In this document: piece after piece, positions 21,852-64,000 of the stretch | Layout of the letters: every line of letters begins with the position of its first letter | How positions within the stretch are numbered: position 1 is the stretch's first letter | Source: Torpedo marmorata | Taxonomy: Eukaryota | Direction of reading: 5' to 3' | Assembly: GCA_977017645.1 (NCBI GenBank) | Contig: OZ360230.1 | Span: forward strand, 38,254,001-38,318,000 | Length of the DNA stretch: 64,000 nucleotides | Notes under the pieces: model-generated | Seen by the model: the letters and a program-made list of their open reading frames with translations, nothing else | Told to the model about the DNA's origin: nothing | Database searches by the model: none | Made by a program: the position numbers and the translations under genes

Positions 21852-21945
21852 GTAAAAACGCAAATGTTGGAGAAACTCAGCAGGTCACACAGTGTACTTT
21901 GTACAGCAAAGATAAAGATGCATAACCAACGTTTTGGGCCTGAGC
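21852..21945 (-). mobile_element. Penelope-type terminal fragment, truncated within hammerhead stem II
   Basis: TGTTGGAGAAACTCAGCAGGTC...AACGTTTTGGGCCTGAGC; homologous to the copies at 37905, 60590 and 63608. Confidence 0.65.
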
Positions 21946-24900
21946 TGGAGAATGTTGCTCAGTTTTAGTTACTATACTTTAGAAGGGATGTCAATGCTTT
22001 AGATTTTTTGGAACATTTTCAAGACTGAGGGATTCCATAGATGGGGAAAAACTATAGAAACAGGATTATTCTCCAAGAGCACAGCAGGGTTAGAAGATAT
22101 TTAATGGAAGTATTCAAAATTCAGAAATTCTATGGAGTGGATAGGGAGAACATTTCCACCATCACCTTTCATTTGTATCCCATGGTTACCCATTATCCTG
22201 TCAATATTTAAAGGTGATTCACAAAGAAATAAACTAGAGAGGAGATGAAAATAAATGAACATTGGGCTTTTATGACCTGGACTCCATTGCTTAAAGAAAT
22301 ATAGTTAAAATACTTTCATAAGGGAATTGAATAAATACTAGAAGAGGAAAGGGTTCTGGGAAAGAGCAGGGGAGGTTTGGAGGAATTGGATGGCTCTTTA
22401 AAGGGTCGATTGAAGAAATGAATAATTGAATAGGCTTCCATATTGCAGTGGTTTTTGATGATGTATATAAACATTTTACTTGTAGGTGACCATACAAATA
22501 ACCTAATTTTGCTCCATTATCTTGCTTTCTAGATCCATATTTGAAGAATCCCCAGGAAGTGAACACTTTATAGACACCCTGCTTTCAATCATGGCTACAC
22601 ATCTAGAAATGAAAAGCAACAATTGGATGCAAGATACTTAACTTAAAATCTTTAATAATAATACAAAGTTTAATAATAATACAAAATAATAAGTACTAGT
22701 AAGTATCTGAATCTTAAAACATTGCATGTTCATCTCCTAATGCATATGGATATAGAAATGTAATGATAATACATTTTACTTTTGGTCAAATTCTGTATAA
22801 GCTCTTTATTGATACTTTTATGATTTTATTAGTGGCAACTAGAATGAAGTTGTCATTATTTTACTTGGGGAATTCTTTTAAATTAAAGTTAATCATTGTT
22901 TATTCGACTAATTTTTGTTTACATCTCACATCTCACTTTGAATAGGTATTTTATTCCAGCTTTGATCTAAGTCTCCTTTTTCCTTTCTACCTTTTTCAGC
23001 TTCCTGTCCAAGAGATTTGGCACTCATGAACTTTGCCAGGCCTGTCTCACAATGACATGATGGCTAAGTAAATTGTCCAAAACCAGTCAAACACTGAAGA
23101 GGTAAAATGCTCTGTCCTTTGTCAGAGTTTCATCTATTCCTTTCACTTTGAACAACATTTTCACCACTGGGCTAATTTAACCATTTACCATTCTTTATTT
23201 TATTGCACATTTTTAAGAATGTAGCTACATGCAGTGACAATAGAATTAAACATATGCCAACAGCGTCGAATATTGCAGTAGATGTTGATGCAAACATAAA
23301 TGACAAGTAACTAGAATATTGTTTTGACTTGATTAAAACCTTAACATCTATAATGAACTAACTATAACTGTATTAATAAATCAATCATTAAATTAAATAT
23401 ATATTTTTTATGAAATAGAAGAGGAATAAAAATTTTATCTCCTGAGATGAATATTTTGTTCATACACTATTTAATTTCTTTTTCCGATGCTCTACTATCT
23501 CACTATCTTGACCCTTGCCTGACTTCAAATATTTTTCCAGATTTATGATATTTGTAACTGCAGATGCTCTTTCATATCTTCATGCAAGCCATTTCTCATT
23601 CAGTGGGCAGAGTAGCAGTGCTTGTGTATACATGCCCTCCATGTACAACTCAGTCCAGATTTATTCACACACTCATACTTTCTCATTTAGTCATTTGCTG
23701 TATGAGCAAATGCTCAACAAATCTCTGCAATTGAATAAAACTTACAACTTAAAATCTGTTCACAGGATTTAATGCATTAATTATCCAAAATATATATAGG
23801 TGTATAACTCCTAATAATAAACAATATTTGTTATTTTTTTTATAAATTGTTAAAAACACATTTATTCTTTGTGTAGCGCAGGAAATGAATTACTTTGCAT
23901 TTTAAATATAGCATCAATAATTTTATAATATTACATTGTTTTATGTCACCTTAAATTTAGCAACATTTCATTTAACTGTTACCAACTATACAAGTAGTGG
24001 CTATTTACTCTGCCATCCCAGTTTGATTATCCCTTATACTTCTCAATAAATTTGCATGATATAAGAAAATTTGTAGCAAATTCAAGAAGACTGAAGGGGT
24101 TGTCTTCGGTCTCTGTCACAAACCTAGTTCCAGAACTACTGAGTTTATCCCTTAATCTGGTATCTGTTTTAAGATTGAACCAGGCTCTACATTGGTGTCA
24201 TGATTGACTCTGAGATAATCTTAGGACTATATATTTGCAGTTAGTCTCTACCTCATTCAAGGGATCTCCTGCTCAAACCCTTATATGTATCATCATTGCT
24301 TCCATGCTTAACTACACCAACATACTTCTAACCACACTCTCTCATTTTGCTGTCTATGAAAATAAGATAATTTTATCTTTGAATATAATGACTCAGTCTC
24401 CACAGAATCTTGGGTAGAGAATCCCATATGTCATGACTTTCTGAAATAAGAAATTTCTATTCATATTGATCTTAAAATTCTGAGACTGACAAGCTCCTTC
24501 AAGATCTGATATTTCAAAGAGTACAAGTCAGTCACCCTAATTTTGACTCATTAGATAATACCTTCTTACCTAAAATCAATATCTGTGAATTTTCTATATC
24601 TCTAAGGGATGCTAGAGATGCTTTTACGGTTTTGATCCCCGTTAAATAAGGGGATCAAAATCATACAGAATAGCCCAAATGTCTCAACGATGTATTATAA
24701 AGTTGAGGCAAAACATCCTTACTTTTATACTCTATTCCTCTTGCAATAAAGACAAAAACAGCCAGATCATTTTCAATGAAAAAGGAAGCTAAAATCACTG
24801 GAACCAAATCTGCAATTTTAGGCTATCTATGATGACATTGCCGTGTCTAGCTAGAATAGAAATGATTGGGTAGTTCCCTGTCAATGAGATTTGCTACCCA

Positions 24901-26374
24901 CATTGAGTAACTGACTGAGATTAATATTGTATGCATAATTTATGTAACCAACTAGCATTCATTATTTTCTTTCCTGGGTAAATTACTCTGCTTTTATTGG
25001 GGAACTTTGATTGCAATGGTCTTTGGGCATCTGCAAGCACCTAGAGGTTCTTGGTTTCCTCCAGAGGTCAGAGAGGAAATTATCAGAGAATTGCTGAAAC
25101 AGTTTAAGGTTTGTCTTTTGCCACTGAAGGCAGATGATAGTCTCTCCTGAGTACAATATTAGTTTTGACAGGAATGGAGAGAGCTTACTGCATTTAATCC
25201 TGTTGTGTTATATTTGAATAAAATATGAAATTGTTTATTATTTCTAGGAAACTCTTAAAGAATAACTCTGTAAAAAAAGACGTTAAACAGAAGCAGGCAG
25301 CAAATAAAACAGGCATCAATGCAGCTGAGGGGGAAATTGCTGAGTGACAAAGAGTGTAGTGGGTAGAAATTTGTCTTTAATCGGTAGTGCTAAATGGGCA
25401 GTCAGAGCTGCCTCTTGTACATGCCTCCAGATATCGACATCTGTAGAACTGAATGGGCTGAATCATATTGGCTACGGCCAGCAATTCTGGCTTTCAGCCA
25501 TTCAAGCTGAGGTACGTCCCAGACTTAGACACTTGCAATGTTAGACTCAGTCTTGTTGACAGATTTGGAAGGCTGGGAAAATGCTGGGGAATTGCCTTTT
25601 GGATCCTATGCCAGATCAGAGCTGGCCTGGGATCAGAAACTCTATTGATTACAGTAGGAATTCTAATCCTGCAGGTTTGAAGGGAAGAGTACATTAATTT
25701 GTTAATTATTGTTATAGTTTTTAATAATCTAGTTATTTATTAACTGAATTTAATTAACTTCACTTTTAATTTAAATTTTAAATACATTTTTGTTTAATTA
25801 TGCACTTTTTTTTAAATGCCTTTGAATATTAGAACCTTTTAAAATGTTGTCAAAGTTGGTAAAAGTTTTGACAGAAGACAAAGCTCTTCCTCCAGCTTTG
25901 CATTTTGTTGGGGGCGCTTAAGGAACAGGGTTTGCACCCAGTGCTGCCCATCACCCAGACTTCACCTTCAGGCTCAAGGGTGCAGAGGCCCACCCACCGA
26001 GTCAGTCCCTCGACAACCAGCCAGGCAATATGGGCGGACTCAGTCCAGCACAATCCTGCTCAATATTGGCGATGGCATATGTATGCTTGCCATTGTGGGC
26101 CAAAAGTGAATTTCTAAAAAAATATTTTTATTTTATTAACCATTCACTTACTGCAGCCTGCAGCAATGCTTTAAAGAAATATCCCACAATTAATTATTGT
26201 TATTTTTGAGCTTTACAAGTCCTGGAAGGACTGCACCAGATTTTAATTTTGAAGTATGATTAAAGTACAAGTTATGAATTTAACCATTAAATTGCAAAAT
26301 GAAAGGAAACATTTTTCAAGCATATTGAGAGAGAGTGGCAGATGTCGTACAATGTACATGGAACTGGGTGGCAC

Positions 26375-27081
26375 CAATGTTCCCTCTCATTTTTAGTCGT
26401 CAGTGTGCGCAAAAATCTTATGTTGTGCACATTTGTTTCCTGTGACAAAAGTATGTGCAAAGTATTTGCTTGTGCAAATGTAAACTTGAAATTGTTTCAA
26501 GATAATTTTGGCACAGCCTATCTCTCATGGCTAATAAAACTGTATTGGCATGTTTTAATATAATACAAGTATGATTGCATTCTACAAAGTATAATTATTA
26601 ATTACTACATTATTTTAGGTAATTAACCTTTTGTGCGCAGATTAATTTCCTTTGTGCGCTGGTTGCAAAACGTGTGTGCGCGCGCACACAGTTTAGAGCA
26701 GTGGTTTTCAAACTGCACACTTAAACTCACATTCCACCTTAAGCAATCCCTATGCCATAAGTGCTCTGTGATTACTAAGGGATTGCTTAAGGTGGTATGT
26801 GAGTGGAAAGAAAAAGGTTTGAAAACCACTGTTTTAATCGTCCCTAATTGACTCGTTATGTGCACGGTTTCATAACTCCAAAAGAAATGGGCCAATGACA
26901 ATTTTTCTCAAGCAAAATATTTCAGTAACAATTGGGTTCTTCTCAACCTTCCCTTCCCACCCACATACCACCTTAAGCAATCCCTTACCAATCACAGAGC
27001 ATTTATGGCATAGGCATTGCTTAAGGTGGAATGTGAGTTTAGGGGGGCAGTTTGAAAACTACTGGCTTAGAGGGAAGAGTG
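26375..27081. mobile_element. Older non-autonomous DNA transposon (hAT-like TIR CAATGTTCCCTCT / AGAGGGAAGAGTG) hosting a younger MITE
   Basis: 13-bp TIRs with 2 mismatches; repeated subterminal TGTGCGC motifs; no clear TSD. Confidence 0.55.
26699..27064. mobile_element. hAT (Charlie-like) MITE
   Basis: TIRs CAGTGGTTTTCAAACTG / CAGTTTGAAAACTACTG; 8-bp TSD GTTTAGAG (26691-26698) / GCTTAGAG (27065-27072). Confidence 0.85.
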
Positions 27082-30000: not shown

Positions 30001-30212
30001 TTTAGTAGAGATAGTTTAACTCAAATAAATACATTGATCAGTTCAGTAAACCTATCTGCACATATTTATATTTAAATGCTGTAAAATGAACAAAGAACTT
30101 AACTGAAAGTTAGAAGAATGTGGTGACAGGAAGAAGAACAGTGACATCTGACTGAAAAGCATCTCTTTTTATTGAAGTTGTTTTTGCCAGATAGGCGGTG
30201 GATTCTGAATGA

Positions 30213-30460
30213 GGGGCGGCACGGTCGGCGTAGCGGTTAGCGCAATGCCTTTACAGCGCCAGCAATCGGGACCGGGGTTCGAATCCCGCACTGTCTGTAA
30301 GGAGTTTGTACGTTTTCCCCATGTCTGCGTAGGTTTTCCCCGGGGGCTCCGGTTTCCTCCCAACGTTCGAAACGTACTGGGGGTGTAGGTTAATTGGGTG
30401 TAAATTGGGCGGCACGGACTCATAGGCCAAAATGGCCTGTTACCGTGCTGTATAAGAAAA
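30213..30460 (+). mobile_element. V-SINE (tRNA-derived head, V-domain, CR1-like tail)
   Basis: A-box-like CGGCGTAGCGG; B-box GGTTCGAATCCC (30276-30287); V-domain GGAGTTTGTACGTTTTCCCCATGTCTGCG...CTCCGGTTTCCTCC; tail GGCCAAAATGGCCTGTTACCGTGCTGTA. Confidence 0.9.
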
Positions 30461-31211: not shown

Positions 31212-33220
31212 ATTACATAGAACAGTACAACACAGGAAAATGTGCTTGGCCCACGACATTACAATGGCAAATTACAACACATCTACCTGCACATGGTCTA
31301 TATTCCTCCTTCTCTGCCTCATCATGTGTCTGGCTAAGTACCTCTTAACTGCTGCTGTTGCATCTGCTTCCATCACTTCCCCTGGAAGCATGTTACAGGC
31401 ACTTACCACTTGGTGTAAAAAAAAAACGCCTCAAATTCTTTTAAACGTTTGCCCTCTTATCTTAAAGCTATGACTCTAGTATTTGACAATAGAACCATAG
31501 AACATTACAGCACAGAAACAGGCCCCTTCGGCCCTTCTAGTCTGTGCCAAACCATTTTTCTGCCTAGTCCCACTGACCTGCACCCAGTCCATAGCCCTCC
31601 ATACCTCTCCCATCCATGTACCTGTCCAAATTCTTCTTAAATATTAAAATTGAGCTTGCATTCATCACTTCAGCTCGTTCCACACTCCCGCCACTCTCTG
31701 CGTCAAGAGGTTTCCCCTCATGTTCCCCCTAAGCTTTTCCCATTTCACCCTTAACCCATGTCCTCTGGGTTGTATCGCACCTACCCTCAGTGGAAAAAGC
31801 CTACCTATATTTATTCTGTCTATCCCCCTCGTAATTTTAAATACCTCTATCAAATCTCCCCTCATTCTTCTACGCTCCAGGGAATAAAATCCTAACCTGT
31901 TTAACCTTTCCCTGTAACTCAGTTCCTGAAGTCCGGGCAACATCCTAGAAAATCTTCTCTGCACTCTTTCTATTTTATTGATATCTTTCCTGTAGTTCGG
32001 TGACCAAACCTGCACACAATACTCCAAATTTAGCCTCACCAATGTCTTATACAACTTTACCATAACATCCCAACTCCTATACTCAATACTTTGATTTATG
32101 AAGGCCAATATGCCAAAGCTCTCCTTACAACCGTATCTACCTGTGATGCTACTTTCTGGGAATTATGTATCTGTATTCCCAGATCCTTCTGTTCTACCAC
32201 ACTCCTTAGTGCCCGACCCTTTACCGTGTATGTCCTTTCTTGGTTTGTCCTTCCAAAATACAACACCTCACACTTATAATGGCATTATATTCCATCTGCC
32301 ATTTTTCAGCCCATTTTTACAGCTGATCCCTCTGCAAGCTTTGAAAATCTTTGCTGTCTACAACGCCTCCAATCTTAGTGTCATCTGCAAACTTGCTGAT
32401 CCTATTTACCACCTTATCATCTAGATCATTGAGATAGATGGCAAACAACAATTGTCCCAGCACTGATCCCTGAGGCACACCACTAGTCACAGGTCTCCAG
32501 TCTGAAAAGCAATCATCCACCACTACTCTCTGGCTTCTCCTGTCCAGCCATTGTTGAATTCAGTTTACTACTTCACCATGAATACCGAGTTAGCCTTCCT
32601 GACTAACCTCCCATGTGGGGACCTTGTCAAAAGCCTTACTAAAGTTCATTTAGACAACATCCACAGCCTTTCCTTTGTCAACTTTCCTGGTAACCTCCTT
32701 GAAACACTCTGTAAGATTGGTTAAACATGACCTACCACACACAAAGCCAAGTTGACTATCCCTAATCACTCCCTGGCTATCCAAATAATTGTATATCCAA
32801 TCTCTTAGAACACCTTCCAGTAATTTACCTACTACTGATGTTTCAACCTTGGAAAAAACTCTGACCAGCTATCCTATCTATGCCTCTTGTAAGATTATAC
32901 CTTTCTATCAAGTCACACCTCAACCTCTGACACTCCAGGGAAAACAATCTAATACTCTCTAATCCAGGCAACATCCTGGTGAAGCTCTTCTGCATTCTCT
33001 CTGCACCCTTCCTGTAATGCAGTGACCAGACTGCACACAATACTCCAAATGTGGCTGAGCCAAAGTTTTACACAGCTACAATACGACTTCCTGACTTTTA
33101 TATTCAATGCCTCAACCGATGAATGCAAGATAACTGTGCACTTTCTTTACCATCCTGTCTATTTGTATTGCCACTTTCAGGGAGCTGTGGACTTGCACTC
33201 CAAGATTCCTCTGTCCATCA
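31212..33220 (-). mobile_element. Older CR1 3' fragment split by a younger CR1 insertion (pieces 31212-31488 and 32841-33220)
   Basis: CR1 tail at 31212-31260; decayed ORF2 C-terminus (WSLHYRK...FTRMLPGL...RLRCDLIE) at 32843-33040; the pieces join at ATTTGACA|TTTCAACC. Confidence 0.75.
31489..32840 (-). mobile_element. CR1 LINE, 5'-truncated (RT and C-terminal fragments)
   Basis: SGVPQGSVLG...ISKFADDTK and LYKTLVRLNLEYCVQVWSP...RGDLIEVFKI; (GTTCTATG)n tail; frameshifted. Confidence 0.95.
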
Positions 33221-34289: not shown

Positions 34290-34385
34290 AATGCACAAAG
34301 AGTGAGAGAACTCAGCAGATAAGGCAGCTTTCATGGAAAGAAATAGACAGTCGATGTTTCAGGCTGAAACCTTCATCAGGAATGT
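34290..34385 (-). mobile_element. Penelope-type terminal fragment with hammerhead motif
   Basis: AGAACTCAGCAGATAAGGCAGC...ACAGTCGATGTTTCAGGCTGAAACCTTCATCAGG. Confidence 0.65.
34348..34385 (-). ncRNA. Minimal type-I hammerhead ribozyme motif
   Basis: Minus strand reads CAUUC-CUGAUGA-AGG-UUUCAG-CCU-GAAA-CA-UC-GACUG: full core, 3-bp stem II, stem I with 4 of 5 pairs, UC cleavage site. Confidence 0.7.
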
Positions 34386-35099: not shown

Positions 35100-35226
35100 T
35101 AAATCGTTTGTAAATGTGTGTTATGTCTTTATATGTGCTTCCATGTTTTTACACTGAGGACCGAAGAATGCCGTTTTGTCCAGTTGTACTTTACAACTGT
35201 ATGATAATAATAAACTTGAATTTGAA
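35100..35226 (+). mobile_element. LINE 3' tail fragment (Rex1-like)
   Basis: Ends in AATAAACTTGAATTTGAA; a related tail with (ACTTGA)n lies at 62880-62950. Confidence 0.45.
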
Positions 35227-35537: not shown

Positions 35538-36318
35538 AACTCACCAAGGAGCTGATTGTTGACCTCAGGAAGGGAAATCCAGAGGTGTACGATCCAGTGA
35601 TCATTGGAGGAATTAGAAGTGGAGAGGATGAGCAAATTTAAGTTCTTCGGAGTCACTATCTCAGAGGATTTTACCTGGACCCAACACACCAATGGCATCG
35701 TGAAGAAAGCATGTCAGCGCCTCTACATCCTCAGGAGTTTGCGGAGGTTTGGTATGACACTGGAAACCCTGGCAAATTTCCACAGATGTGTGGTGGAAAG
35801 TGTGCTGACCGGCTGCATCACAGTCTGGTATGGGGACACCTATACCCCTGAGCATAAAGCCCTGCAAAAGGTAGTGGTTACAGTCCAGGACGTCGCAGGC
35901 AAAACCCTCCCCACCATTGAGAACATCTACAGGGAACGCTGCCGTCGGAGAGCACCAGCATTCATCAAGGATCCACATCACCCAGCACACACTCTGTTCT
36001 CACTGTTACAATCAGGAAAGAGGTATAGGTGGCACAAGACTTGCACCACCAGGTTCAGGAACAGCTGCTACCCCTCCACCATCAGACTCCTCAACAACAA
36101 ACTCAATCAGGGACTCATTTAAGGACTCTTACTTTTGCTCTTTATTGACTTTTTTTCTCTCTGCATTGCACAGTCAGTTGTTTACATTTCTTTATTTGTT
36201 TACATTGAGTACAGTTTTTTTGAACTACCAATAAGTGGTAATTCTGCTTCGCCCACAGGTAAAAGAATCTTAAGGTTGCATGTATAAACTCGGACAATAA
36301 ATCTAAAATCTGAATCTG
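35538..36318 (+). mobile_element. Rex1/Babar-like LINE, 5'-truncated
   Basis: ORF 35604-36122 (KKACQRLYILRSLRRFG...IKDPHHPAHTLFSLLQSGKRY) is homologous to the C-terminus of the 587-aa ORF; ends in GACAATAAA plus a TCTGAA-like tail. Confidence 0.9.
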
Positions 36319-36589: not shown

Positions 36590-36750
36590 TCAGATATTCT
36601 CTCTGTTCTCCCTTCCCCCTACAATCTTCTATAGCTTAAACCCACTTGTTTTCTCACCTTGAGTTCTGATGGACGGCCCATGACCTGAAACGTGACCATT
36701 TCTTCCTCCATGGATCCTGACCTGCTGACCTGCTTCTGCATTTTCTGTTC
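36590..36750 (+). mobile_element. Decayed Penelope-type terminal fragment (broken hammerhead)
   Basis: CTGATGG...CCTGAAACGTG followed by CCTGACCTGCTGA...GCATTTTCTG. Confidence 0.55.
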
Positions 36751-37904
36751 TAGAGCGCAAATGACGAACAGATTGGCTTGACAAGTTAAACCAGAAAATA
36801 CTTCCTTTTTTAATTCCCTTCCTGTCACAGATCACAGTGTTGAGGAGCTTATAATTTTATCTCGTTTGCATCTGGATCTTGTTTGGTTTTGCTCTGCGTA
36901 CAGTATGCCTGAAAAGCAGACCATCTGCCATGTTTTATGATATGCATACAATGTTACAACTTGGCTCCACAGTCTCCAATAGAATGTCCCAAGTCAAAAC
37001 ACAAATGGATCTTGAAAGCATAAATAAAAGATGGAGCTTTATCAGTTCAGGAAGCCATAATGGGTCTTTTTTTATTGGTACTGTGATAATAATTACATCT
37101 TGAAAATTGTCTCTTGTATGTCAAACGTCATCCATTCCCAACAATTTAACACACTACAAACACTCACACACATCCAAATTGAATGAATTTGTGATTTACA
37201 ATTAAAGTAAACATTTCATACATTTTACATTGTAATTGCTGATAATGTTCCAAAAGACCCAGGTAGTCTGTCATTTCAATACATCCTGCAAAATTTGATT
37301 TTTTTTAAATTAATTATCCATTTTTTTTACCCCAACCTCAGAAAAGATGTGATTGTCAAGGAAACAATGACAATGTTATTCCTGACAATGAGCTCCCATG
37401 CGCAATTCAGGTGGTGCAAATGTGAAAAAGAGAACCAGAATTTGTCCACTTAAAGAGAAAGCTGCTCCAGTAGCTCTTTGGTAGACCGATAACAGTCAAC
37501 TGGGCAGCAGGGGAGACTACAAGAAAAGAATGTCCAAATTCTGTACAGTAGTAACATAAAGCATCATGTAAAACATGCATATACATCGTAAAACATGCAT
37601 ACACATCTTAAAACCAATATCATCAATAATCTAAACATTCAAAAGGTAAATATACTGTAGCAGCTGGATCTTGAACCACTGACCTGTCTAACCTCCCTCT
37701 CCCGTAGCCTCTATACACACCCCAATACAGGTGATAAAAACCCCAATTAGCATCAGGAATGATTCAGTACAGCATGATTATCATCATGAATGCCTCAGTA
37801 TAGTACCTGTACCCTGATCAGATGAAGGACTTTACTATGTGGTTTTCCCAAAGTATTCACACTAACAAGGTTAACTGGATATCTGAATACATGATATTAC
37901 CTCT

Positions 37905-38125
37905 TGCCTGTGGGACTGTGCTCCTCCCCCCACCCCTCCTCCCCATCATTTTATTCAGGCACCTGCCTACATGTTGCTTATACCTTGATGAAGGACTCAG
38001 GCCCAAAATGTTTCCAATGTATTTTTATGTTTGCTCTACAAATTACGCTGTTTGACCTGCTGAGGTTCTCCAGCATTGTGTTTTTACTTCAATCATGGTG
38101 CCTGCAGACTTTCGTGTTTTACTCC
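37905..38125 (+). mobile_element. Penelope-type terminal fragment (degenerate hammerhead)
   Basis: TACCTTGATGAAGGACTCAGGCCCAAAATG...GACCTGCTGAGGTTCTCCAGCATTGTGTTTTTAC; aligns by eye with the reverse complement of 63608-63830. Confidence 0.7.
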
Positions 38126-41177: not shown

Positions 41178-41285
41178 AATAAAAACAAACTGCTAACTGC
41201 TGGAGGAACTCAACAAGTCAGGCAGCCTACATGGGGGAGAAGTGAACAGTCATCATTTCATGTTGAAACCCCGCTTCAGGTCTCA
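41178..41285 (-). mobile_element. Decayed Penelope-type terminal fragment
   Basis: TGCTGGAGGAACTCAACAAGTCAGGCAGC...ACAGTCATCATTTCATGTTGAAACCCCGCTTCAGG. Confidence 0.55.
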
Positions 41286-43656: not shown

Positions 43657-44296
43657 TAATTGATAGTCCATGGCAAACACCAGCAAACACAACATCCAAA
43701 TAAGAATAATGAGAAAATATAAAGCATCTTTGTCCCAAAGCATTTCACAGGCAATTAGTTGTGAAATGTAAGTCAGTGTTGATAACAGACTTAACAGCAA
43801 TTTGCACAAGTTTCTACTTACTAGAATAAAATGAAAAAGAAGTTCATGTGGGTTGAGGGAAGTATTCAGAACTATCAGAGTTTGTAATTATTTAATCTGG
43901 AAAGACAACAGATTTTGAGAAGGAAGTACAACATTACAGCAGATTTAGAGTGTATTACCTTTAATGATTCTAAAATAAGACAGCAATTCTAAATTGAACC
44001 ATCAATTCAAAACACTCCAAAATGAATTGCAAATCGACATTTTCCCATTCTAAGTTTACTAGCTGTTCCAGGTTCAGCAATGCCAAATCCATTAACACTG
44101 CTGCATTCATATCACATCCAACTACCTGTATAGGAAACTGATAAACGAGTCAGCACTTAGAAAACGATAAACTCAGCAATCCATATCAATTCCATAACAG
44201 TTATTCCATATATACATTAAATTGCACAGCATAAAATTCTGAAGTCCTTTCTACCTCTGAATTAATCCTACATTCAAAAATGAACAACACATACTA

Positions 44297-45156
44297 CACT
44301 GGACAATGAAAATTTTTCTTCCTGAACACCTTTGGGTGTATTTTTATGGATTTTGGGCTCCTTATCATGAAAATCACCTTAAAATTGTCTAATCACGTAC
44401 TTTTTTTAATATATAATTTATTTTTGTGATTTCCTGTCATATTTTAAGTCTACTTCTAGCAGGGGAGGCACGGTTGGTGAGCGGTTAGCGCAACGCTTTT
44501 ACAGCACCAGCGATCGGGACCGGGGTTTGAATCCCACGCTGTCTGTAAGGAGTTTGTACGCTCTCCCTTGTCTGCATGGATTTTCCCTGGGGGCTCCGGT
44601 TTCCTTCCACCGTTTGAAACGTACCGGGGGTGTAGGTTAATTGGGTGTAAATTGGGCAACACGGACTCGTGGGCCGAAATGGCCTGTTACCATGCTGTAT
44701 GTCCAAAAAAAAACACGAAGTGCAACATGTCATTGAAAATTCATTTTCTGCATGCACACTTGGACTTCTCCCCTGCTGATCTTGGTGCAGTCAGTGATGA
44801 ACATGGTGAAAGATTTCACCAGGACATTGCGACCATGGAAAAGCGGAATCAGGGAAACTGGAATCCATCAATGCTGGCCGACTATTGTTGGACACTGACA
44901 CGAGAGGCATCAGATGCTGAGTACAAACGAAAATCAACAGCAAAACATTTTATTTGATCAGTTGAACTAACGCAACGTGTCAGCATCATTATGCGATTAA
45001 ACATGCTAAATTCAATAAAAGTTAATTTAATGTTTCTCCAACTTCCTCCGTAATACAGCAAATCTGAAACTATATTTATGTTCATCTTAAAGTTGTCCAT
45101 CATAATCCCCAATTTTTTTCAGGAAGCAAACATTTCAAATAATTTATTGTCCAGTG
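44297..45156 (+). mobile_element. Chapaev3-like (CMC) non-autonomous DNA transposon, copy 1
   Basis: TIRs CACTGGACAA / TTGTCCAGTG; 3-bp TSD CTA (44294-44296, 45157-45159); retains a transposase-like C-terminus MSLKIHFLHAHLDF...SDEHGERFHQDI...MLADYCW. Family name recalled from the CAC..GTG ends, 3-bp TSD and protein motif. Confidence 0.8.
44462..44712 (+). mobile_element. V-SINE nested in Chapaev3-like copy 1
   Basis: Closely similar to 30213-30460; absent from the equivalent position of copy 2. Confidence 0.9.
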
Positions 45157-50327: not shown

Positions 50328-52312
50328 TTCAGAATCAGAATTTATTGTCATGAACAAGTCATGAAATTCAGTGTTTTGTGGCAGCATCATAGTGCAATTA
50401 ACATTCATATTATAGCCATCTCACGACATTACTATAAAAAATTATAAATAATAGTGCACGAAAAGTAAGGCAGTGTCTTTGGTTCATTGATTATTCAGGA
50501 ATCTGATGGCAGCGGGGAAGAAGCTGTCCTTGTGCCATTGAGTGCTCATCTTTAGGCTCCTGTACCTTTTTCCCGATGATAGCAGAGTGAAGAGGGCATG
50601 GCCTGGGTGGTGGGGGTCTTTGAGGATAGAAGCTGCTTTTTTAAGACACCGCCTCATGTAGATGTCCTCGATGGAGTGAAGTTTGGAGCCTGTGATGTCA
50701 CAGGCCGAGTTAACAACCCTCTGGAGTTTACTCTTGTCCTGAGAGTTGGTGCCTCCATACCAGGCAGTGATGCAACCAGCCAGAATGCTCTCCACGGTAC
50801 ACCTGTAGAAGTTTATGAGAGTCTTCGGTGACATACCGAATCTCCTCAGACACCTCACAAAGTATAGCCGCTGGCGAGCCTTCTTTGTGATTGCATCAAC
50901 ATGGAGGCTCCAGGACAGATCCTCGGAAATGTTGACACCCAGGAATTTGAAGTTCTTGACCCTCTCCACTACTGAGCCCTCGATGAGGACTGGGTCGTGT
51001 TCCCCTGACTTCCTCCTGAAGTCCACAATCATCTCCTTGGTTTTGCTGATGTTGAGCTCAAGGTTGTTGTCGTTACACCATTCAACGAGCTGATCTATCT
51101 CCCTCCTGTACGCTTCCTCATTGCCGTTTGTGATTCTGCCGACAACTGTGGTGTCCTCGGCAAACTTGTAGATGGCATTGGAATTGTGCCTGGCCACACA
51201 GTCATGGGTGTATAATGAGTAGAGCAGTGGACTAAGCACGCATCCTTGGGGTGTGCCTGTGTTGATAATCAGTGAGGAGGAGACGTTGTTTCCAATTCGT
51301 ACTGACTGTGGTCTTCCGATGAGAAAGTCAAGGATCCAGTTGCAGAGTGGGGTACAGAGGTCTCGAGTTTGTAGCTTCTTGACCAGCACTGAAGGAATAA
51401 TGGTATTGAAGGCCGAGCTGTAGTCGATGAAGAGCAGCCGTATGTATGAATTGCTGTTTTCGAGGTGATCCAGAGCTGAGTGGAGAACCAGCGATATTGC
51501 ATCTGCTATGGAGCGATTGTGACGATAGGCGAATTGCAGTAGGTCCACATCTTTGCTCAGGTACGTGTTAATTCTGGCCATGACCAGCCTCTCAAAGTAT
51601 TTCATCACAGTAGAAGTTAGTGCTACTGGGCAGTAGTCGTTGAGGCAGCCCACACTACTCTTCTTGGGTACCGGGATGATTGATGCCCTTTTGAAGCAGG
51701 TGGGAACCTCTGACTGCCGCAATGAGAGGTTGAAAATGTCCGTGAACACTCCAGCTAGTTGGTTGGCGCAGATTTTCAGTACCCAGCCAGGTACGCCGTC
51801 AGGGCCTGACGCCTTGCGAGGATTCACCCTCTTGAATGATGTTCTGACGTCGCCCTCAGAGACAGATATCACAGGGTCCTCAGCCTTTTCAGGGATTCTA
51901 GTAGGCACTGTTTGGTTCTTCTTCTCAAAGCGGGCATAGAAGGTGTTCAGCTCATCGGGTAGTGAAGCATCACAGCCGTCTATAGTGTTCGCCCTCGCTT
52001 TGTAGGCTGTAATGGCCTGCACTCCCTGCCATGGCTGGCGTGTATCTGTTTCTGACTTCCTCCGGAATTGCCACTTTGCTTCAGAGATGGCCTTCCGCAG
52101 GTCGTGCCTGGACTTTTTGTAAAGATCCCGGTCCCCGGCCTTAAACGCCCTTGTTCTCGCCCTCAAAAGGTTGCAAATTCTCTGATTCATCCAGGGCTTC
52201 TGGTTGGGGAACACCCGGTATTTGCGAGTGGGCATACACTCATCCACGCAGGTCTTGATGAAGTCGGTGACACCTGTTGCATATTCATTCAGGTCTATGG
52301 ATGAGTTCCTGA
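50328..52312 (-). mobile_element. Rex1/Babar-like LINE, 5'-truncated, young
   Basis: Uninterrupted RT-containing frame; 3' end GACAATAAATTCTGATTCTGAA; endonuclease domain missing. Confidence 0.92.
50484..52247 (-). pseudogene. Non-LTR reverse transcriptase ORF (587 aa) of the Rex1-like element; catalytic FADD changed to FAED
   Basis: Motifs KASGPDGVP, PVALTS, FIDYSSAFNT, GTPQGCVLSP, YKFAEDTT, FKFLGV. The listed start is not a true initiator because the element is truncated. Confidence 0.88.
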
Positions 52313-52534
52313 ATGTTTGATATTAAACATATATGATATTTTTTAGTTATAATACAATATTTGACAAAACTAAAGATATGTCTTGTGTAGGCACAAATTG
52401 ATGATCTGAAATAAATGAATTATAACTCATAATCAACTGAACAAATTATTCTGTCTTACAAAAAGGAACAAGTCATTTAGCCGATGCCTGTCTCACCATT
52501 CACTTAAAGAATTATCTGTGACATACAGTAATTA

Positions 52535-53125
52535 CCGTATATACTCATGTAAAAGTTGAATTTTGTAGACCATTTTTTAATGTTAAATTTATGGGGTCGA
52601 CTATTACATGGATACTACTTTTGGGGGCTGAAATTCACACGAGAATCCAAAATGCCATATCAGTAGCAGAAGTCCAAATGATCTCTAAACTAATAAAGAA
52701 CAAAAACACAATGAATTAAAGTAATAATGCAGAGTGTGCACATCAAAACACATATTCCACCAAGGGGGAGGTCGGGATTGCGGTACGTATCGGTGTCGTC
52801 GGAGGCGTCGGGAGTTCCGATGGGCGGGCGGCCAGGGCCAAGGCGTGAGTCCATGTCAGAGGCGTCAGGTGCTCTAGCCTGCAGACGGCCGGGGCCAAGG
52901 CGTGAGTCCACGTTGGAGGCGTCTGGAGCTCTGATGGGCAGGCGACCTGGGCCAAGGCATGAGTTCATGAGCGAAGTGTCAGGTTCTCCGACCTGCGGGT
53001 GGCTGGGGCCGAGGTGAGAGTCTAGGGTCGACTTTTACGTGAGATTTAGGGAAAATTCCAGATTTTTTGGCCAAAAATAGGGGGCCAAATTTACATGAGA
53101 TCAACTTTTACACGAGTTTATATGA
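52535..53125. mobile_element. Tc1/mariner-superfamily (Tc2/pogo-like) MITE
   Basis: TIRs CCGTATATACTCATGTAAAAGTTGA / TCAACTTTTACACGAGTTTATATGA; TA dinucleotide on both sides (52533-52534, 53126-53127). Confidence 0.8.
52795..53022. repeat. GC-rich 57-bp minisatellite, four units, inside the MITE
   Basis: GAGGCGTC-like anchor at 52802, 52859, 52916 and 52973. Confidence 0.9.
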
Positions 53126-55120: not shown

Positions 55121-55824
55121 GGAATACAGATACAGTACATAATTCCATGAAAATGGCGTCACAGCTGGATAGGGTTGTAAAGAGAGCTTTTGGCATATTG
55201 GCCTTCATAAATCAAAGTATTGAGTATAGGAGTTGGGATGTTATGGTAAAGTTGCATAAGACATTGGTGAGGCCAAATTTGGAGTATTGTGTGTAGTTTT
55301 TGTCACCTAACTACAGGAAAGATATCAAAAAGATAGAAAGAGTACAGAAAAGATTTACCAGGATGTTGCCCGGACTTCAGGAACTGAGTTACAGGGAAAG
55401 GTTAAGCAGGTTAGGACTTTATTCCCTGGAGCGTAGGGGAGATTTGTTCGAGGTATTTAAAATTATGAGGAGGATAGACAGAGTAAATGTAGATAGGCTT
55501 TTTCCACTGGGCGTAGGTGAGATACAAACCAAAGGACATGGGTTAAGAGTGAAAGGGGAAACGTTTAGGGGGAACATGAGGGGGAAACTTCTTCACACAG
55601 AGAGTGGTGGGAGTGTGGAACGAGCTGCCAGCTGAGGTGGTGAATGCGGGCTCAATTTTAACATTTAAGAAGAATTTGGACAGGTACATGGATGGGAGAG
55701 GTATGGAGGGCTATGGGCTGGGTGCAGGTCAGTGGGACTAGGCAAAAAAAATGGTTCGGCACAGACTAGAAGGGCCGAAGGGGCCTGTTTCTGTGCTGTT
55801 GTGTTCTATGGTTCTATGGTTCTA
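55121..55824 (+). mobile_element. CR1 LINE 3' fragment
   Basis: SPNYRKDIKKIERVQKRFTRMLPGL...; (GTTCTATG)n tail; same subfamily as 31489-32840. Confidence 0.95.
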
Positions 55825-57083: not shown

Positions 57084-60000
57084 CTCTGGACAACAAATTT
57101 TTTCAAAAGGTTTGGTTCCTTTTTTTAAAAAATATTTTATTTAAAAATTTTAAATCACAAAATACATAAAATAGAATATAAAATTATCAAATTATTTGTG
57201 ATACATTTTCACCCCCCCTCCCTCCCTCCCCTCCCCAACCCTCCCAACCCCACTAATCTAATAAAAAAAAAAAAAAAAATAGAAAAAGAAGAAGAAAAAG
57301 AAAGAAAAAGATAGAGTAAGGGGAATGCCAATCTATAAACTAATTCTATTATGGAGGTCAAGTACGCCAGTAGATCCGATATCCAGAGATCTTCAAATCC
57401 TTAAACCAACAGCTTTCATATATGAGCTCCAAATTTTAAGAAGAAATGATATTTATTACGTAAATTATAAGTAATTTTTTCAAGTGGTATACACGAACGA
57501 AGTTCTGCATGCCATCTTTCTAATCCTAAATCTAAATCAGATTTCCAAATAATAGCAATGCATTTCTTTGAAACAGCTAAAGCAATTCGTAAAAATTCTA
57601 TTTGATACATATTTAATTTCATCTTAATACTAAGTTTTCTAATATCTCCAAACAAAAATATCATAGGATCCATTGGAAATGTAATCTTAAATACTTTATC
57701 TAAGAAATTTTTAACTTTCAACCAAAAATCATAAACTTTTGGACAAAACCATGTAGAATGTACAAAAGACCCTTCCTCTTTATTACATCTAAAACATAAA
57801 CCTGATAGTGTCGGATTAAATTTCTTTAATTTTTTAGGTGTTAAATATAATTGATGAAAAAAATTGTATTGTACTAATCTATATCTAACATTAATAATCT
57901 TCGTCATACTTAATTTACATAATTCTTTCCAATGATTTTCATCTATTCTTATATTCAAATCTAATTCCCATTTTAATCATGATTTATGCAATCCTACTTT
58001 AGGCATTTTCCTCTGAAATAATTTATACATTTGAGAAATAAATTTATTAACATCTCCATTAGTAACTAATAATTCTAATTCATTCTGTCTTGGTAGAATC
58101 AAAGCATAACCTAATTTCTCAATCAAAATCTCTAATTTGATAATAAGCAAAAAGTGTATTATCTAATATATTAAATTTATCTTTCATTCTTTGAAAAGTA
58201 ATATATTTCCCAGCTTCAAAACAATCATTAATCTTCTTAATTCCTTTTTGAAACCAAATTTTAAATAATTGATTATTAATAGTAAATGGAATAAGTCCAT
58301 TTTGATATAAAGGCATCCTTGGAGAAATCAATCCTTTTCCTCCTATTTCCTTATCCGTCTTATTCCATATTTCTAACAAATGTTTAAAAATAGGCGAATG
58401 TTTCTTTCTTGTTGATATTAATTTAGAATCACATTTATAAATAATTTCTTCTTTGGAATCTTCTCCTATATTATTTAACTCTATTTTAATCCAAGCAGAA
58501 GATTTAGTTGAATCAAAAAATTCATTAACAAATTATAATTGAGCTGATTTGTAATAATTTTGGAAATTAGGAAGTTGTAGACCACCCATTTCATAATTCC
58601 AAGTTAATTTTTCCATACTTACTCTTGCTAACTTTCTTTCCATAAAAAATTTCTAATAATTGAATTTAAATCTTTAAAATTTTTTTGAGGAATTCCATAA
58701 GGAATTGATTGAAAAAGATATTGAATTCTTGGAAAGACATTCATTTTAATACAATTTACTCTTCCCATTAAAGTTATAGGTAAGTCTTTCCAGTTTTCTA
58801 AATCTTTCTTTATTTTCACAAATAATGGTAGATAATTTAATTTATATAAATTAGCCAATTTTGTATCAACCCTTATTCCCAAATATTTAATTCCTTCCTT
58901 TGCCCATTTAAATTGTGTAATTTCTTTACATCTACTATAATCCCCTTGTGATAATGCCATAATTTCACTTTTATCAGAATTAATTTTATATCCAGATATT
59001 TCCCCATATTCTCTCAATAACACTGATAATTGTACTAAGGATGTAATAGATTTTGTCATATATATCAATACATCATCTGCAAACAAACTAATTTTATGTT
59101 CTTCCATTCCAACTTTAATACCAATTATTTTAGGATCTTTTCTAACTAATTCTGCCAAAGGTTCTATCGCCAAAATAAATAATGCTGGTGACAAAGGACA
59201 TCCTTGTCTAGTAGATCGAGTCAAAGGAAATTTTGAAGAAATGTGTCCATTCGTAACTACTTTAGCAGATGGTTCTTTATATATAGTTTTAATCCAATTA
59301 ATAAATGTATTTCCAAAACCAAATTTCTCCAATACCTTAAATAAAAAATTCCACTCTAATCTATCAAAAGCCTTTTCAGCGTCTAAAGTTAAAACTAATG
59401 GTAAATCTTCCTTCTTTTTATGTAAATTAATTAAGCTAATCAATCTAGCTATATTATCTTTTGAATATCTATTTTTAATAAAACCAGCTTGATCTACATG
59501 AATTAAATCTGGTAAATAATTAGCCATTCTATTTGCTAAAATCTTTGCCATTATCTTATAATCTACATTTAATAATGAAATAGATCTATAAGATTCAGTT
59601 TTCAATACATCTCTATCTTTCTTTGGTATAACTGTAATTATTGCATTTAAAAAAGTATCTGGTAGAAAAGGTTTGCTTCCTGAAAAAAATTGGGGATTAT
59701 GATAGACAACTTCAAGCTGAACACAAAGATAATTTCAGATTTGCTTTATCACGTAGGAAGTTGGAGAAACATTAAATTGACTTTTATTGAATTTAGCATG
59801 TTTATTCGCATAATGATGCTGACACATTGCGTTAGTTCAATTGACCTAAAAATGTTTTGCTGCTGATTTTCATTTGTACTCAGCATCTGATGCCTCTCGT
59901 GTCAGTGTCCAACAATAGTCGGCCAGCATTGATGGATTCCAGTTACCCTGATACCGCTTTTTCATGGTCGCAATGTCCTGGTGAAACCTTTCACCATGTT

Positions 60001-60260
60001 CGTCACTGACTGCACCAAGATCAACAGGGGAGAAGTCCAAGTGTGAATGCAGAAAATGAATTTTCAATGACATGTTGCACTTCATGGTTTTGTATGCTTG
60101 AAGTAGACTTAAAATATGACAGGAAATCACAAAAATAGGTTAAATCTTAAAAAAACAGTACGTGATAGGAACATTCTAAGGTGATTTTCGTTATCAGCAG
60201 CCCAAAATCCATAAAATACACCCAAAAGTGCTCAGGAAGCAAAATCTTAGTTGTCCAGTG
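57084..60260 (-). mobile_element. Chapaev3-like non-autonomous DNA transposon, copy 2 (split by L1)
   Basis: Ends CTCTGGACAA (57084) and TTGTCCAGTG (60260); TSD TTA (57081-57083, 60261-60263); body 59666-60260 is homologous to copy 1; ORF 59870-60130 has KIHFLHSHLDF...GERFHQDI...ADYCW. Confidence 0.85.
57121..59665 (-). mobile_element. L1-clade LINE, 5'-truncated, disrupted ORF2
   Basis: YRSISLLNVDYK, DAEKAFD, QGCPLSP, LFADD, KYLG (58628-59605); CCHC-type CFRC...HSTWFC (57416-57958); G-rich 3' UTR, AATAAA and A-tail; 16-bp TSD AAAAGGTTTG[G/C]TTCCT (57105-57120, 59666-59681). Confidence 0.93.
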
Positions 60261-60589
60261 TTATTAGTAGTAGGGTCTCCATTTAAAAAAATAGCTGGTG
60301 CAACTGCTGTTACCAAATGGCAGCTCCTAGTGTGAGGAATGTGGAAAATCACTCACATCCTGAGTCAAGTGGACAGGCAGCTTTGGAGATAGGAGTCAGA
60401 CAATCCATGGTGTTCTCAAAAACAGCCTAAACATTTTTAGCATCCTTGCTTCTCTTGGGCCAATGAAAATAAAATGTAAATATGTCCATGGCTGTTTGTA
60501 ATCTGCCTCCCCTGAATTCTTTGTAGCCCAAGTCAAAGAAGTTGGACATACAGTACAGGTCTTATGCTCAATCTATTTGGAGCTGAATG

Positions 60590-60720
60590 GAATTAAACAA
60601 GAAAATCTGCAGATGCTGGGGTCAAGTGTCATACACAAACATGCTGGAGAAAGTTGGCAGGTCACGCAGCAGGTAGGAGGTAAACAATATTTCGGGCCTG
60701 AGCCCTTCGTCAGGTATATA
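60590..60720 (-). mobile_element. Penelope-type terminal fragment with hammerhead motif
   Basis: AAATCTGCAGATGCTGG...TGCTGGAGAAA...CAGGTCACGCAGC...TTTCGGGCCTGAGCCCTTCGTCAGG; flanked by a 16-bp direct repeat. Confidence 0.75.
60681..60718 (-). ncRNA. Minimal type-I hammerhead ribozyme motif
   Basis: Minus strand reads UAUAC-CUGACGA-A-GGGC-UCAG-GCCC-GAAA-UA-UU-GUUUA: full core, 4-bp stem II, palindromic AUAU stem III, stem I with 4 of 5 pairs. Confidence 0.7.
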
Positions 60721-61835
60721 CAGCTCCAAGTGTTGCTACTTGGAGCTGAATTTTGTCTGTTGCTTTCTTCCAATAGATGGGCATTTGAGTTTCTATCCTT
60801 AAGCTACCTTCCCTCTGGTCAAAGTAAAAGGCAGAACACTGATTCACTCGGGTCTGCCTGAATATTGGAAGGCTGGTCATTCCATTTTTAACTGTGGGTG
60901 GCTGCGCTTTGAGTTTCCCTTCTTTGTATTTCTTTGAATATCGTGTTTAGAACTAGATCTTTGCTAAACAGTCATCCTATTTAAGCACCTCTGATTGTTT
61001 AGTTCATTGGAAGTCATTGTGTAAATGCAGGTTGTTATTGGTGCTATCTATAGCAGAGCAGTGTCTCTGCTTAAAGCATTCTTTACTGACAAGAAATTCA
61101 CATGTTGGTTTAAGCCTGTACATTCAAGTTTATCCTCCTTCACAGCTAAGCCTTTCCTTAAAGGGATGAATCTGCAAGTAATTTCACCATTCACATCAGA
61201 TTGTTTATAGAGAGTGAAGCCTCTCAAACTTCATGCCTCAAGAGTGTGTATATAAAACGGACAGTCTGATAGAGCAGAGTGTATTAGATTTCGAATTGTT
61301 TGACAGGACTCCTCTGCCTCTTTCAGTCAGACAGGAAGCAGTCAATTTATTAATGCATAGGTTAAGACCTAGCTGATGTTACTGCCCATACTCTTAAGAG
61401 CTGAAGTATACGATAGGTAAAAATGCATATAAACGAATTGGAGAACTTGGGCATTTGTGTAACTTTACTATTCATAACAAATCTTGAGTTGAGACAGTAA
61501 GTACGAAATAAAATAAATCAAGGATAAGAATGTGCAGAGTGCTCTTTTAACTAAGGGACCCTTTGTCAACTAAGTGGTAGAACTCACTGAGTGCAGCACT
61601 CATACATCTTAGGCTCGATTGTCCTCCATGAGATACAAGCTTTTTAACTCCAAAGTGCTCATTAACTTCTTAAGTAATTGACATGAAGATTGTGACACCT
61701 ACTCATGGGAGAGCCAACTCTAACAGCCATTTTCAGCATTCATTACTTGAGAATTATGCATTAATAACCACAGCACTCTTATTATATCAGATGCTCCAAA
61801 GGAACCATATTGGAAAATGTTACTTGCCACACTTG

Positions 61836-62336
61836 ATAACCATATAACCATATAACAATTATAGCACAGAAACAGGCCAGTTCGGCCCTTCTAGTCCATG
61901 TCGAACCCCTTCTCCCACCTAGTCCCACTGACCCGCACCCGGCCCATAACCTTCCACACCTCTCTCGTCCATATACCTATCCAACTTTTCCTTAAACATT
62001 AAAATTGAACCTGCATCTACCATTTCGGCCTGAAGCTCGTTCCACACTCCCACCACCCTCTGAGTGAAGAAATTCCCCCTCATGTTTCCTCTAAACTTTT
62101 CCCCCTTCAATCTCAATCCATGCCCTCTTGTTTGAATCTTCCCCACTCTCAATGGAAAAAACCTGTCCACGTTGACTCTATCTGTCCCCTTCATAATTTT
62201 AAATACCTCTATCAAATCACCCCTCAACCTTCTACGCTCCAGGGAATAAAGACCCAGCCTGCTCAACCTTTCCCTGTAACTCAAACCCAGAAACCCAGGC
62301 AACATTCTTGTAAATCTCCTCTGCACTCTCTCTATT
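61836..62336 (-). mobile_element. CR1 LINE 3' fragment
   Basis: IERVQRRFTRMLPG...RGDLIEVFKI...NFFTQRVVGVWNEL; (GGTTATAT)n tail. Confidence 0.93.
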
Positions 62337-62616
62337 GATCCAAATAAACAATTAAGCAAGTGAGAAGGTTCATGCTTTCCCTGTGAACAATGGAGGGATA
62401 GCCAAACAGAGAATGTTATGACATAATTATGGCCATTTATAATCACTTTTACAATATGTGGGTATTGCTGGCATGACCACTATTTATTGCCCATTGAGAA
62501 GATAGTGTTGAGATGCCTTCTTGAACCACAGTGGTTCAAATTAAGTCCCATAATCCTAGAGTACTAGGACTTAAGAGTCAGAGACACTGGAGGAATAGTG
62601 GTGGAGTTCCAAATCT

Positions 62617-62720
62617 ACATAAAACATTACAGCACAGTCCAGGCCCTTCGGCCCACGATGTTATGCTGACCTATGTAAACGGACACAACAAACTAAACCT
62701 TCCGTACCTCACACCCATAA
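62617..62720 (-). mobile_element. Short CR1 3' tail
   Basis: ACATTACAGCACAGTCCAGGCCCTTCGGCCCAC. Confidence 0.55.
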
Positions 62721-62879
62721 CCAATGGGAACAAAGAATTAGATATATTATTAAATAGAGTGATAAGGCCGTGAGCAGCAAGAGTGGAGATGATTAGTTAA
62801 TTCCTCTGAAAATCAAGCAAGACACCCACACTGCTGTCAGTGACTGAAAGTGATTTCATGCACGTAACTTATTCTAAGC

Positions 62880-62950
62880 TCACTGTGGTTGTTGTACTTG
62901 TACAATCGAAGGATCAATAAACTTGAACTTGAACTTGAAACTTGAACTTG
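62880..62950 (+). mobile_element. LINE 3' tail with (ACTTGA)n
   Basis: AATAAACTTGAACTTGAACTTGAAACTTGAACTTG. Confidence 0.5.
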
Positions 62951-63607
62951 CAGTTTTGAAAAAAATTACCCTGCTTTTTTATTGAGAGATGTTGCAGTTA
63001 CTATTTCCTCGACATCTTTTATAGACTTTGAACCAGAACACATTGATTCTGGCCCTTTCCTTGCGGTTGTCACTCATGCTAGTTTGGTCGCTGCACTAAA
63101 TATTATTTGCTCATGTGCGCCCAATGCAGTGCCAACATCACCACTGTGGGCCTTCCTTGAAGGGCATTGAGCCATGAGTGGCAGGAACTAAGTCTCCACT
63201 CATGGTCTGCCCTGATGGAATTCTGACAGCAGATGCTGCCATGCTCGTTACTGTTCCCAAGTCATCAAAGACTTTGATGAGAAATAACATTGAGAAACAA
63301 TAAATAAATGAAAACTATTGTATTATCTTTAAAATATAAATAATATTTTAAAGTGTATGAAACTGATGTTAATTTTTCAAAGATAAAAATGTGAAAGAAC
63401 GGAAAAAATAAATAAAATCTTTTTTTAAATGAATGCAAATGGCAGTACTTAAATAAGTCATAGATTCATACCACACAGAAATAGGCCCTTCAAACCAACC
63501 TCCCTGCCCGAACATGCTGACCATCGATACCATCGTATCCCATAGTCGAGATAACCCATTCTTAGCTGGAATGACTGGGACTGCACAAGGTGGGCCAGCC
63601 ATGAGTC

Positions 63608-64000
63608 GGGAGTGAAACATGAAATTCTGCAGACACTGTGATTGTAGTAAAAACACAGAAATGCTGGAGGAACTCAGCCGGTCTCGCAGCGTCCATAGGA
63701 GGTAAAGATATCTTACTGACATTTCGGGCCTGAACCCTTCCTCAACGTATAAATGAACAAAGACAGGATTCTGAGTTAAAGACTGGGGAAAGAAAGGGCG
63801 AAGAATGGGAGGGGGAGGAATACAGACCAACAGACAAAAGGTGTTAATTGGATATAATAAGAGGAAAGGCGAGAATTGACTTTAGCTCTGTGAAAGGAGA
63901 CAGAGGGAAAAGGGAAGAGAGGGAGAGACAGCTGGAGGAAAGGAGACAGGGGGAAGTAGATGGGGGGAGGGCTGGGGGCTTCTAACGGAAACCAGAGAAG
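63608..64000 (-). mobile_element. Penelope-type element end, continuing beyond the window
   Basis: TGCTGGAGGAACTCAGCCGGTC...GACATTTCGGGCCTGAACCCTTCCTCAA followed by a long purine-rich tract; longest copy of this family in the window. Confidence 0.7.

Follow-up and report, generated by a model that had tools for sequence, protein, structure and literature searches.

The window analysed here is the whole stretch of 64,000 nt of a Torpedo marmorata contig (OZ360230.1; genome 6.2 Gb), in which an earlier note had described seven related repeats with Penelope-type termini next to a hammerhead ribozyme motif. Searching the window with three profile hidden Markov models (HMMs), each trained on a set of genomic relatives of the window copies, gave exactly seven matches, one for each named copy, and none in the reversed window or in 59 reversed control regions, so the seven repeats are confirmed at their positions. 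The copies and the features discussed with them are the following:

Copy 21852, 21852..21944, minus strand: subfamily B stub (91% to B over 93 nt), 5' end within stem II, no core, short 3' end.
Copy 34290, 34290..34384, minus strand: older subfamily C stub (91% to C), C3 at 34379.
Copy 36590, 36590..36760, plus strand: very old stub of group F, C3 at 36666, A9 and H17 altered.
Copy 37905, 37893..38125, plus strand: subfamily B (88% to B), U3 at 37985, G12 lost, long 3' end.
Copy 41178, 41185..41283, minus strand: old stub of group G, C3 at 41279, A9 and U16.1 altered.
Copy 60590, 60589..60719, minus strand: subfamily E stub (91% to E), C3 at 60713, long 3' end.
Copy 63608, 63608..64000, minus strand: subfamily A, fixed 3' end at 63608, U3 at 63745, 3' untranslated region (UTR) and GIY-YIG stop.
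GIY-YIG endonuclease open reading frame (ORF), last codons and stop, 63982..64000, minus strand: in the relatives L017 and L059, the sequence goes on into the GIY-YIG core.
Shared block, 63662..63678, minus strand: predicted to fold into a small hairpin; it lies in the non-coding tail, immediately 5' of the short 3' end.

We consider it probable that these repeats are 3' ends, truncated on their 5' side, that belong to about six subfamilies of an autonomous Penelope-like retrotransposon, each end carrying a minimal hammerhead that is likely folded, and mostly uncut, in the RNA that is copied. The shared block starts at 21865, 34304, 36724, 38059, 41198, 60642 and 63662 in the seven copies. A hammerhead is recognisable in six of them, on the sense strand of the element; copy 21852, cut inside stem II, is without the core. 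The motif is, as had been proposed, a minimal type I hammerhead with a palindromic stem III, the palindrome being 4 nt long, while the CTGANGA core given for it is not universal, copies 37905 and 63608 reading TTGANGA. Every core base is retained in copies 60590 and 34290, the latter with a decayed palindrome; from a reading of the aligned copies, all seven appear damaged in the core, the palindrome or stem I, and they are ordinary dead stubs. An Rfam scan of the window gave 22 weak matches, with no hammerhead among them.

Copies 60590 and 34290 begin at the 5' strand of stem I and copy 41178 begins near it, probably at the same place, in agreement with the earlier observation that several copies end at the motif. 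Copy 34290 has the short 3' end. The left boundary of copy 36590 is uncertain, and just five further genomic matches to it were found (74–79%). Copy 60590 is flanked by a 16-bp target-site duplication with one mismatch (60573 and 60736), a lower score threshold being reached by one of 300 random flank pairs, and copy 37905 by a 13-bp duplication, also with one mismatch (37880 and 38126). The interval 60720–60735, which separates copy 60590 from its second duplication, holds a 10-nt inverted duplication piece and a few filler bases, as if the reverse transcriptase (RT) had switched to the target DNA. Copy 63608 has one end that is fixed and common to its relatives and another that is variable: on its minus strand, the last ~20 GIY-YIG codons are followed by the 3' UTR, the hammerhead (predicted cleavage site 63718/63717) and the tail, and the copy extends beyond the window to ~64045, followed by an inverted partial pseudo-long terminal repeat (pLTR; ~64047–64107). 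The statement that the window contains no RT or GIY-YIG ORF thus needs correction for the last GIY-YIG codons and stop inside it.

Long relatives of these copies join an RT and a GIY-YIG domain, a link that the earlier note had put forward for testing. At locus L069, a hammerhead-bearing pLTR is joined to an open frame of 551 aa that contains RVT_1 (E 2.7e-7) and GIY-YIG (E 0.0013, short of the curated cut-off), and in L064, L070, L075 and L077 an RT is joined to the same subfamily A end as copy 63608. L274 is a complete pLTR-ORF-pLTR unit with pLTRs 3,758 nt apart, the full unit measuring ~3.76 kb, and L275 is a tandem. In five partial tandems (L216, L222, L232, L233 and L235), the 3' end runs into the next 5' UTR, and an inverted partner adjoins the 5' end of 15 of 60 young copies. 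Endonuclease-positive (EN+) Penelope-like elements are characterised by one ORF in which GIY-YIG follows the RT, by pLTRs that arise from partial tandems, by inverted 5' copies and by an optional tail, and all of these were found here. GIY-YIG pieces were detected upstream in 12 of 29 loci of family A, 6 of 19 of B, 5 of 14 of C, 16 of 21 of D, 3 of 14 of E and 8 of 10 of H, some of these pieces being neighbours. For the groups of the oldest window copies, the link was found in none of five loci of F and in one of 14 of G, there at an unexpected distance. Stops or frameshifts occur somewhere in every copy seen. A variable number of short coding tandem repeats was observed between the N-terminal part and the RT in the ORFs of L069, L074, L079 and L090.

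The autonomous parent appears to be a Neptune-like Penelope retrotransposon. The translations of L069 and L059 contain a CX4CX2C linker and CCHH residues; the placement is read from these two features, which are shared with Nematis. The protein differs in its linker from Poseidon, the linker being assigned to Neptune and Nematis, and not to Poseidon, in PMC8557442. The C-terminal GIY-YIG, the CX2-5CxxC linker, the CxxC inside GIY-YIG with two later histidines, the partial tandems, the inverted 5' copies and the 30–40-bp tail are likewise described there for Neptune and Nematis. In the partial tandems of family H, the next unit holds the hammerhead and tail in its 5' UTR, with the first ATG ~35 nt past the usual 3' end and an in-frame stop nine codons ahead of that ATG, so the motif and the shared block are non-coding in this family. 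This led us to reject, for family H, the possibility that the shared block is kept as a coding N-terminus of the ORF, as in the anole Poseidon element PAc.

Copy number was estimated from an unbiased sample of 59 ten-kb regions at round coordinates on 27 large contigs. They contained 114 HMM matches, or 1.93 per 10 kb (bootstrap 1.49–2.37), which extrapolates to ~1.2 million element ends genome-wide, ~0.66 million of them from young families; a high-copy ribozyme-bearing family had been anticipated. The window, at 1.1 per 10 kb, is not enriched. By closest consensus, copy 63608 belongs to A, 37905 and 21852 to B, 60590 to E, 34290 to C, 41178 to G and 36590 to F; F and G are loose groups assembled from the query's own matches, and the G consensus is biased towards copy 41178. 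Families D and H have no copy in the window. Considering matches with at least 60 aligned nt in the unbiased regions, mean identity was 96.4% in D (n=26), 91.2% in B (12), 90.2% in H (4), 88.1% in A (15), 85.9% in E (9), 82% in G (8), 80.7% in C (7) and 78.4% in F (12). The repeats are therefore not one family in a decay series, as the earlier note had it, but about six subfamilies of differing age. Four family D insertion copies, 98–99% identical and with flank, lie within 25 kb of each other as a local duplication array (L187–L190, G000:C31:79.97-80.00 Mb).

The hammerhead of the young families deviates from the minimal type I motif at one pair. Position 3 was U in 39, C in 6 and A in 2 of 47 parsable cores from 590 kb, and an exact 30-nt pattern, which fits young families only, had 73,703 matches genome-wide with U3 vs 759 with C3, and 0 in the reversed control. 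The four youngest families (A, B, D and H) have U·G at 3-8 and hence no Watson-Crick pair at that position, and C-G is found in C, F, G and part of E. In a tree of 37 copies, comprising the five nearest the consensus of each family and two for F, the four youngest families form a single clade (100/100) beside E, a family with copies both with and without the extra T. Judging by the sequence upstream of the core, the U3 change is a one-base insertion after a C, between E and A/B/H, through which the former C3 now pairs with G1.1, shifting stem I, and a U is left opposite G8. In family D, that C has become U in 20 of 20 parsed loci and still pairs with G, so that no C3 reading is possible there. 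By these comparisons, the four youngest families derive from one lineage with a single insertion and otherwise unchanged core bases.

In the consensus of A, B, D and H, U4, G5, A6, G8 and A9, G12, A13 and A14, A15.1-U16.1, H17 and G10.1-C11.1 are all kept. Thirteen of 13 core columns are invariant across these families vs 18 of 62 flank columns, with variation at N7 and H17. Contigs of four runs (four studies and four coded organisms, one of which may be the window's own), compared at 85% likeness, had no difference at position 3 among the rows listed, and 2.1 varies. Stem II is paired in 92.1% of cases, with a U·G to U-A change, and stem I, counted ungapped, in 65.7%, with two-sided changes in four of four pairs, compared with 32–47% in slid controls; the rows are related. 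The hammerhead core was not obtained in the minimum-energy folds of the monomer and homodimer, since the bases from position 3 to N7 can pair with those of stem III. At locus L344 (G000:C1:5814636-5814711), two tandem hammerheads lie 46 nt apart, and the second one begins anew at the 5' strand of stem I; this is a natural intramolecular dimer.

In the tail, the shared block could form a 7-bp hairpin on the sense strand, with 92% of cells paired and no two-sided change. A longer stem can enclose the block, its 3' strand falling between the two 3' ends of the element; it is paired in 90%, and it varies at one pair (U-A 14, C-G 12, U·G 6) and at another (G-C 20, A-U 7). Counted as independent double changes, these come to about two, each of the CpG-decay type; they weakly suggest a putative tail stem and are to be taken as a lead only.

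The ends of young copies were examined in two samples. In the first (57 of 63 matches, with six short, diverged, region-edge or misassigned matches left out), the cleavage site was read through in 53 of 57 copies, and a single copy started within 3 nt of it. The second covered 80 regions with the first 90 of 100 listed U3 pattern sites, which are unselected upstream of U3. Here, 14 of 90 5' ends fell 0–8 nt before U3 (0.019 per nt) vs 14 in the next 71 nt (0.0029 per nt); most of the piled-up ends lie in what is predicted to be the 5' strand of stem I, 4–7 nt before U3. After pruning, in which an internal deletion, a duplicated locus and a tandem restart were dropped and a head-to-head pair was counted once, 10 ends remained at the stem I edge vs 14 (p=5e-4), and the clustering of copy ends at stem I that had been put forward for testing was thereby found. 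Apparent clustering in the old C, F and G copies was not trusted, their alignments failing upstream of the motif. Three stem-I-edge copies carry 11–15-bp target-site duplications, identified by eye; together with those of 60590 and 37905, these mark the copies as whole insertions. A splice acceptor at the stem I edge was considered and rejected, with no AG there and no shared upstream exon in 14 flanks, as was fold-back priming of the cDNA, the inverted neighbours being separate head-to-head ends and not continuations from stem I.

The 3' ends fall at two sites ~40 nt apart, used by 21 and 31 of the 57 copies; in the 90-site sample, they lie at +73–83 in 36 copies and +106–115 in 48, and are shorter in 6. 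They match the known optional Penelope tail of 30–40 bp. Two internal, target-primed RT start sites have been reported in the anole element (PMC11167929) and correspond to the 3' ends found here.

On these grounds, a mechanism can be proposed. The GIY-YIG domain would nick the target, and the RT would begin at either of two internal positions of the RNA, ~75 or ~112 nt beyond the cleavage site, and copy back through the hammerhead, halting at variable points. The excess of halts at the 5' edge of stem I would yield insertions of ~110 or 150 nt with target-site duplications. As a stall would leave ends on the near side, the far-side stop at stem I fits better with a template that often ends, or a cDNA that is released, where the fold closes. 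The template would be uncut, because the DNA copies read through the cleavage site. A weakened 3-8 pair is expected to lower hammerhead activity. The U3·G8 ribozyme is accordingly predicted to be slow or protein-dependent, and cutting would not be needed for insertion; hammerhead mutants of the anole element had no effect on in vitro insertion (PMC11167929). Given the changed core base in the youngest families and the tendency of short copies to stop at its edge, the motif is likely kept for its fold, and any cutting by it is putative. A bolder and tentative proposal, which we regard as rather unlikely, is that the hammerhead has changed its job: the insertion would have weakened the catalytic pair while the fold was selected through four successive families and ~0.6 million copies, the closed stem I marking the limit of the template on its 5' side, as a start site or as a block to a nuclease, internal priming in the element's own 5' UTR giving the 110/150-nt insertions without a separate short interspersed nuclear element (SINE), and a second covarying tail stem acting as a putative protein-binding site between the priming points.

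Much of this agrees with published systems. The metazoan Penelope-like pLTR minimal hammerheads described in PMC4209133 share the type I order, the extra base after A9, G10.1-C11.1, the 4-nt palindromic stem III and the short stem I, and occur mostly as single truncated copies, some oppositely oriented. They differ in position 3: the consensus given there is C3-G8, with U3-A8 discussed for Schistosoma, whereas U3·G8 is fixed here in the dominant young families. In Fig. S3 of that paper, U3·G8 appears in one of 56 rows (Saccoglossus 1), and no row is from a cartilaginous fish. PAc resembles the present element in its two internal RT starts that define the optional tail, in a hammerhead near the ORF start and in the uncut RNA template, which we infer here from read-through; unlike it, PAc keeps C3-G8, its ORF starts at stem II and its tail is coding (PMC11167929), while the first ATG of family H lies beyond the 3' end. 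A literature search, which did not cover key work on short-stem-III hammerheads and the 3-8 pair, found no published discussion of U3·G8. The element type, the hammerhead motif, the tail and the inverted stubs are thus already published; the present analysis adds the single origin by insertion, the genome-wide count, the stem I pile-up and the possible tail stem.

Several observations weigh against a folded, mostly uncut hammerhead on the ends of an autonomous element. Stem I pairing without bulges is modest and is weak in family E, and RNAalifold, with other pairs at -1.8 kcal/mol, recovered neither the hammerhead nor the tail stems. Folding z-scores of the tail range from -1.9 to +0.9, and the longer tail stem appeared in four of eight single folds. 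The p-value for core against flank conservation (Fisher 1.6e-6) is overstated, as the flanks are pyrimidine-rich and of low complexity. Groups F and G were not linked to an ORF; copies 36590 and 41178 are placed with the element only through the similarity of their pLTRs. Coarse bins of the 57-copy sample gave no excess of 5' ends at the motif, and the sample with the pile-up is made up largely of family D (79 of 90) from 6.8 Mb of one contig arm; the pile-up could also arise from microhomology to AT-rich targets. Read-through, finally, is equally expected from a cut and religated circle.

That last route, in which the hammerhead cuts in vivo and the pieces are religated into circles copied by the RT, has been proposed in PMC4209133, and the five partial tandems whose 3' end runs into the next 5' UTR are compatible with it. 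We find it unlikely, as only one of the 57 young copies starts at the cleavage site, the pile-up lies ~30–35 nt upstream of that site, and for the anole element no read is reported to end there (PMC11167929). Somewhat less doubtful, and a possibility to be kept in mind, is that the U3·G8 motif is catalytically dead and kept for another reason, either to bind the protein of the element or to act as an internal promoter, such as the one present in the Drosophila Penelope pLTR (PMC2377424). Single C3G and G8C changes abolish cleavage of the anole element (PMC11167929), and the conservation of stem II, its loop and the tail is similar to that of the core. The U·G wobble, however, is milder than the mismatches tested in the anole element, and the variation falls where a hammerhead tolerates it: A, G, U or C at N7, C or U at H17, C to U at 2.1 still pairing with G1.1, and the wobble replaced by a Watson-Crick pair in stem II.

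A core that retains C3-G8 and accommodates an additional U between positions 3 and 4, with the register shifted in the opposite direction, is very improbable. The one-base insertion after a C would allow it, and insertions near C3 are known in saltern hammerheads (PMC3088659), but D, the youngest family, offers no C3, and this register leaves a single stem I pair ahead of a mismatch. We give hardly any weight to the idea that the short copies form a separate non-autonomous retrozyme- or SINE-like family, which the earlier note had entertained as short non-autonomous units. L297, L329, L354 and copy 60590 do span the stem I edge to the fixed 3' end with 11–16-bp target-site duplications, and the pLTR-derived, hammerhead-bearing non-LTR retrozymes of animals have been described as tandem arrays with a hammerhead per unit (10.64898/2026.07.22.740005). 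Unlike these, the copies here, the seven of the window included, are dispersed truncations continuous with ORF sequence: short and long copies share the same family sequence, short ones occur in several subfamilies, lengths are continuous from ~100 nt to >1.3 kb, and 34 of 90 copies reach at least 375 nt upstream. No separate family was found. Truncated ends of autonomous elements, with a fold that is mostly uncut when copied, remain our preferred reading.

Descriptors that demand C3-G8 or U3-A8 miss most young copies in the T. marmorata genome. Families with C3-G8, the family where the insertion took place and young U3·G8 families, with exact copies numbering in the tens of thousands, form a natural series in this genome, through which one can test directly whether selection acts on cutting or on folding alone. 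This bears on why Penelope elements keep a hammerhead at all, given its low activity and the in vitro insertion by mutants.

Other elements were also observed in the window. On the minus strand, an open frame of 611 aa at 50484–52322 contains RVT_1 (E 4.8e-29) and ALKBH8_N and belongs to a non-Penelope long interspersed nuclear element (LINE) that we take to be Rex1/Babar-like, with a shorter relative at 35601–36122, and 57416–59734 (minus strand) is a remnant of an L1-like ORF2 with RVT_1 (E 1.4e-41) and zf-RVT. Three related LINE 3' fragments, presumably CR1/HER1-like, lie at 31486–32169, 55136–55820 and 61858–62479, the first without a Pfam match. Inverted copies (85–95%) of a probable DNA-transposon remnant occupy 44296–45135 and 59667–60261, the former interrupted by a tRNA-like SINE that is also present at 30232. 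Short elements resembling miniature inverted-repeat transposable elements, with long inverted arms, are found at 26699–27064 and 13207–13332; one of them has 125-nt arms at 87%, and the other is a CA/TA-rich hairpin that draws weak miRNA matches. Four tandem GC-rich units of 57 nt are located at 52798–53025.

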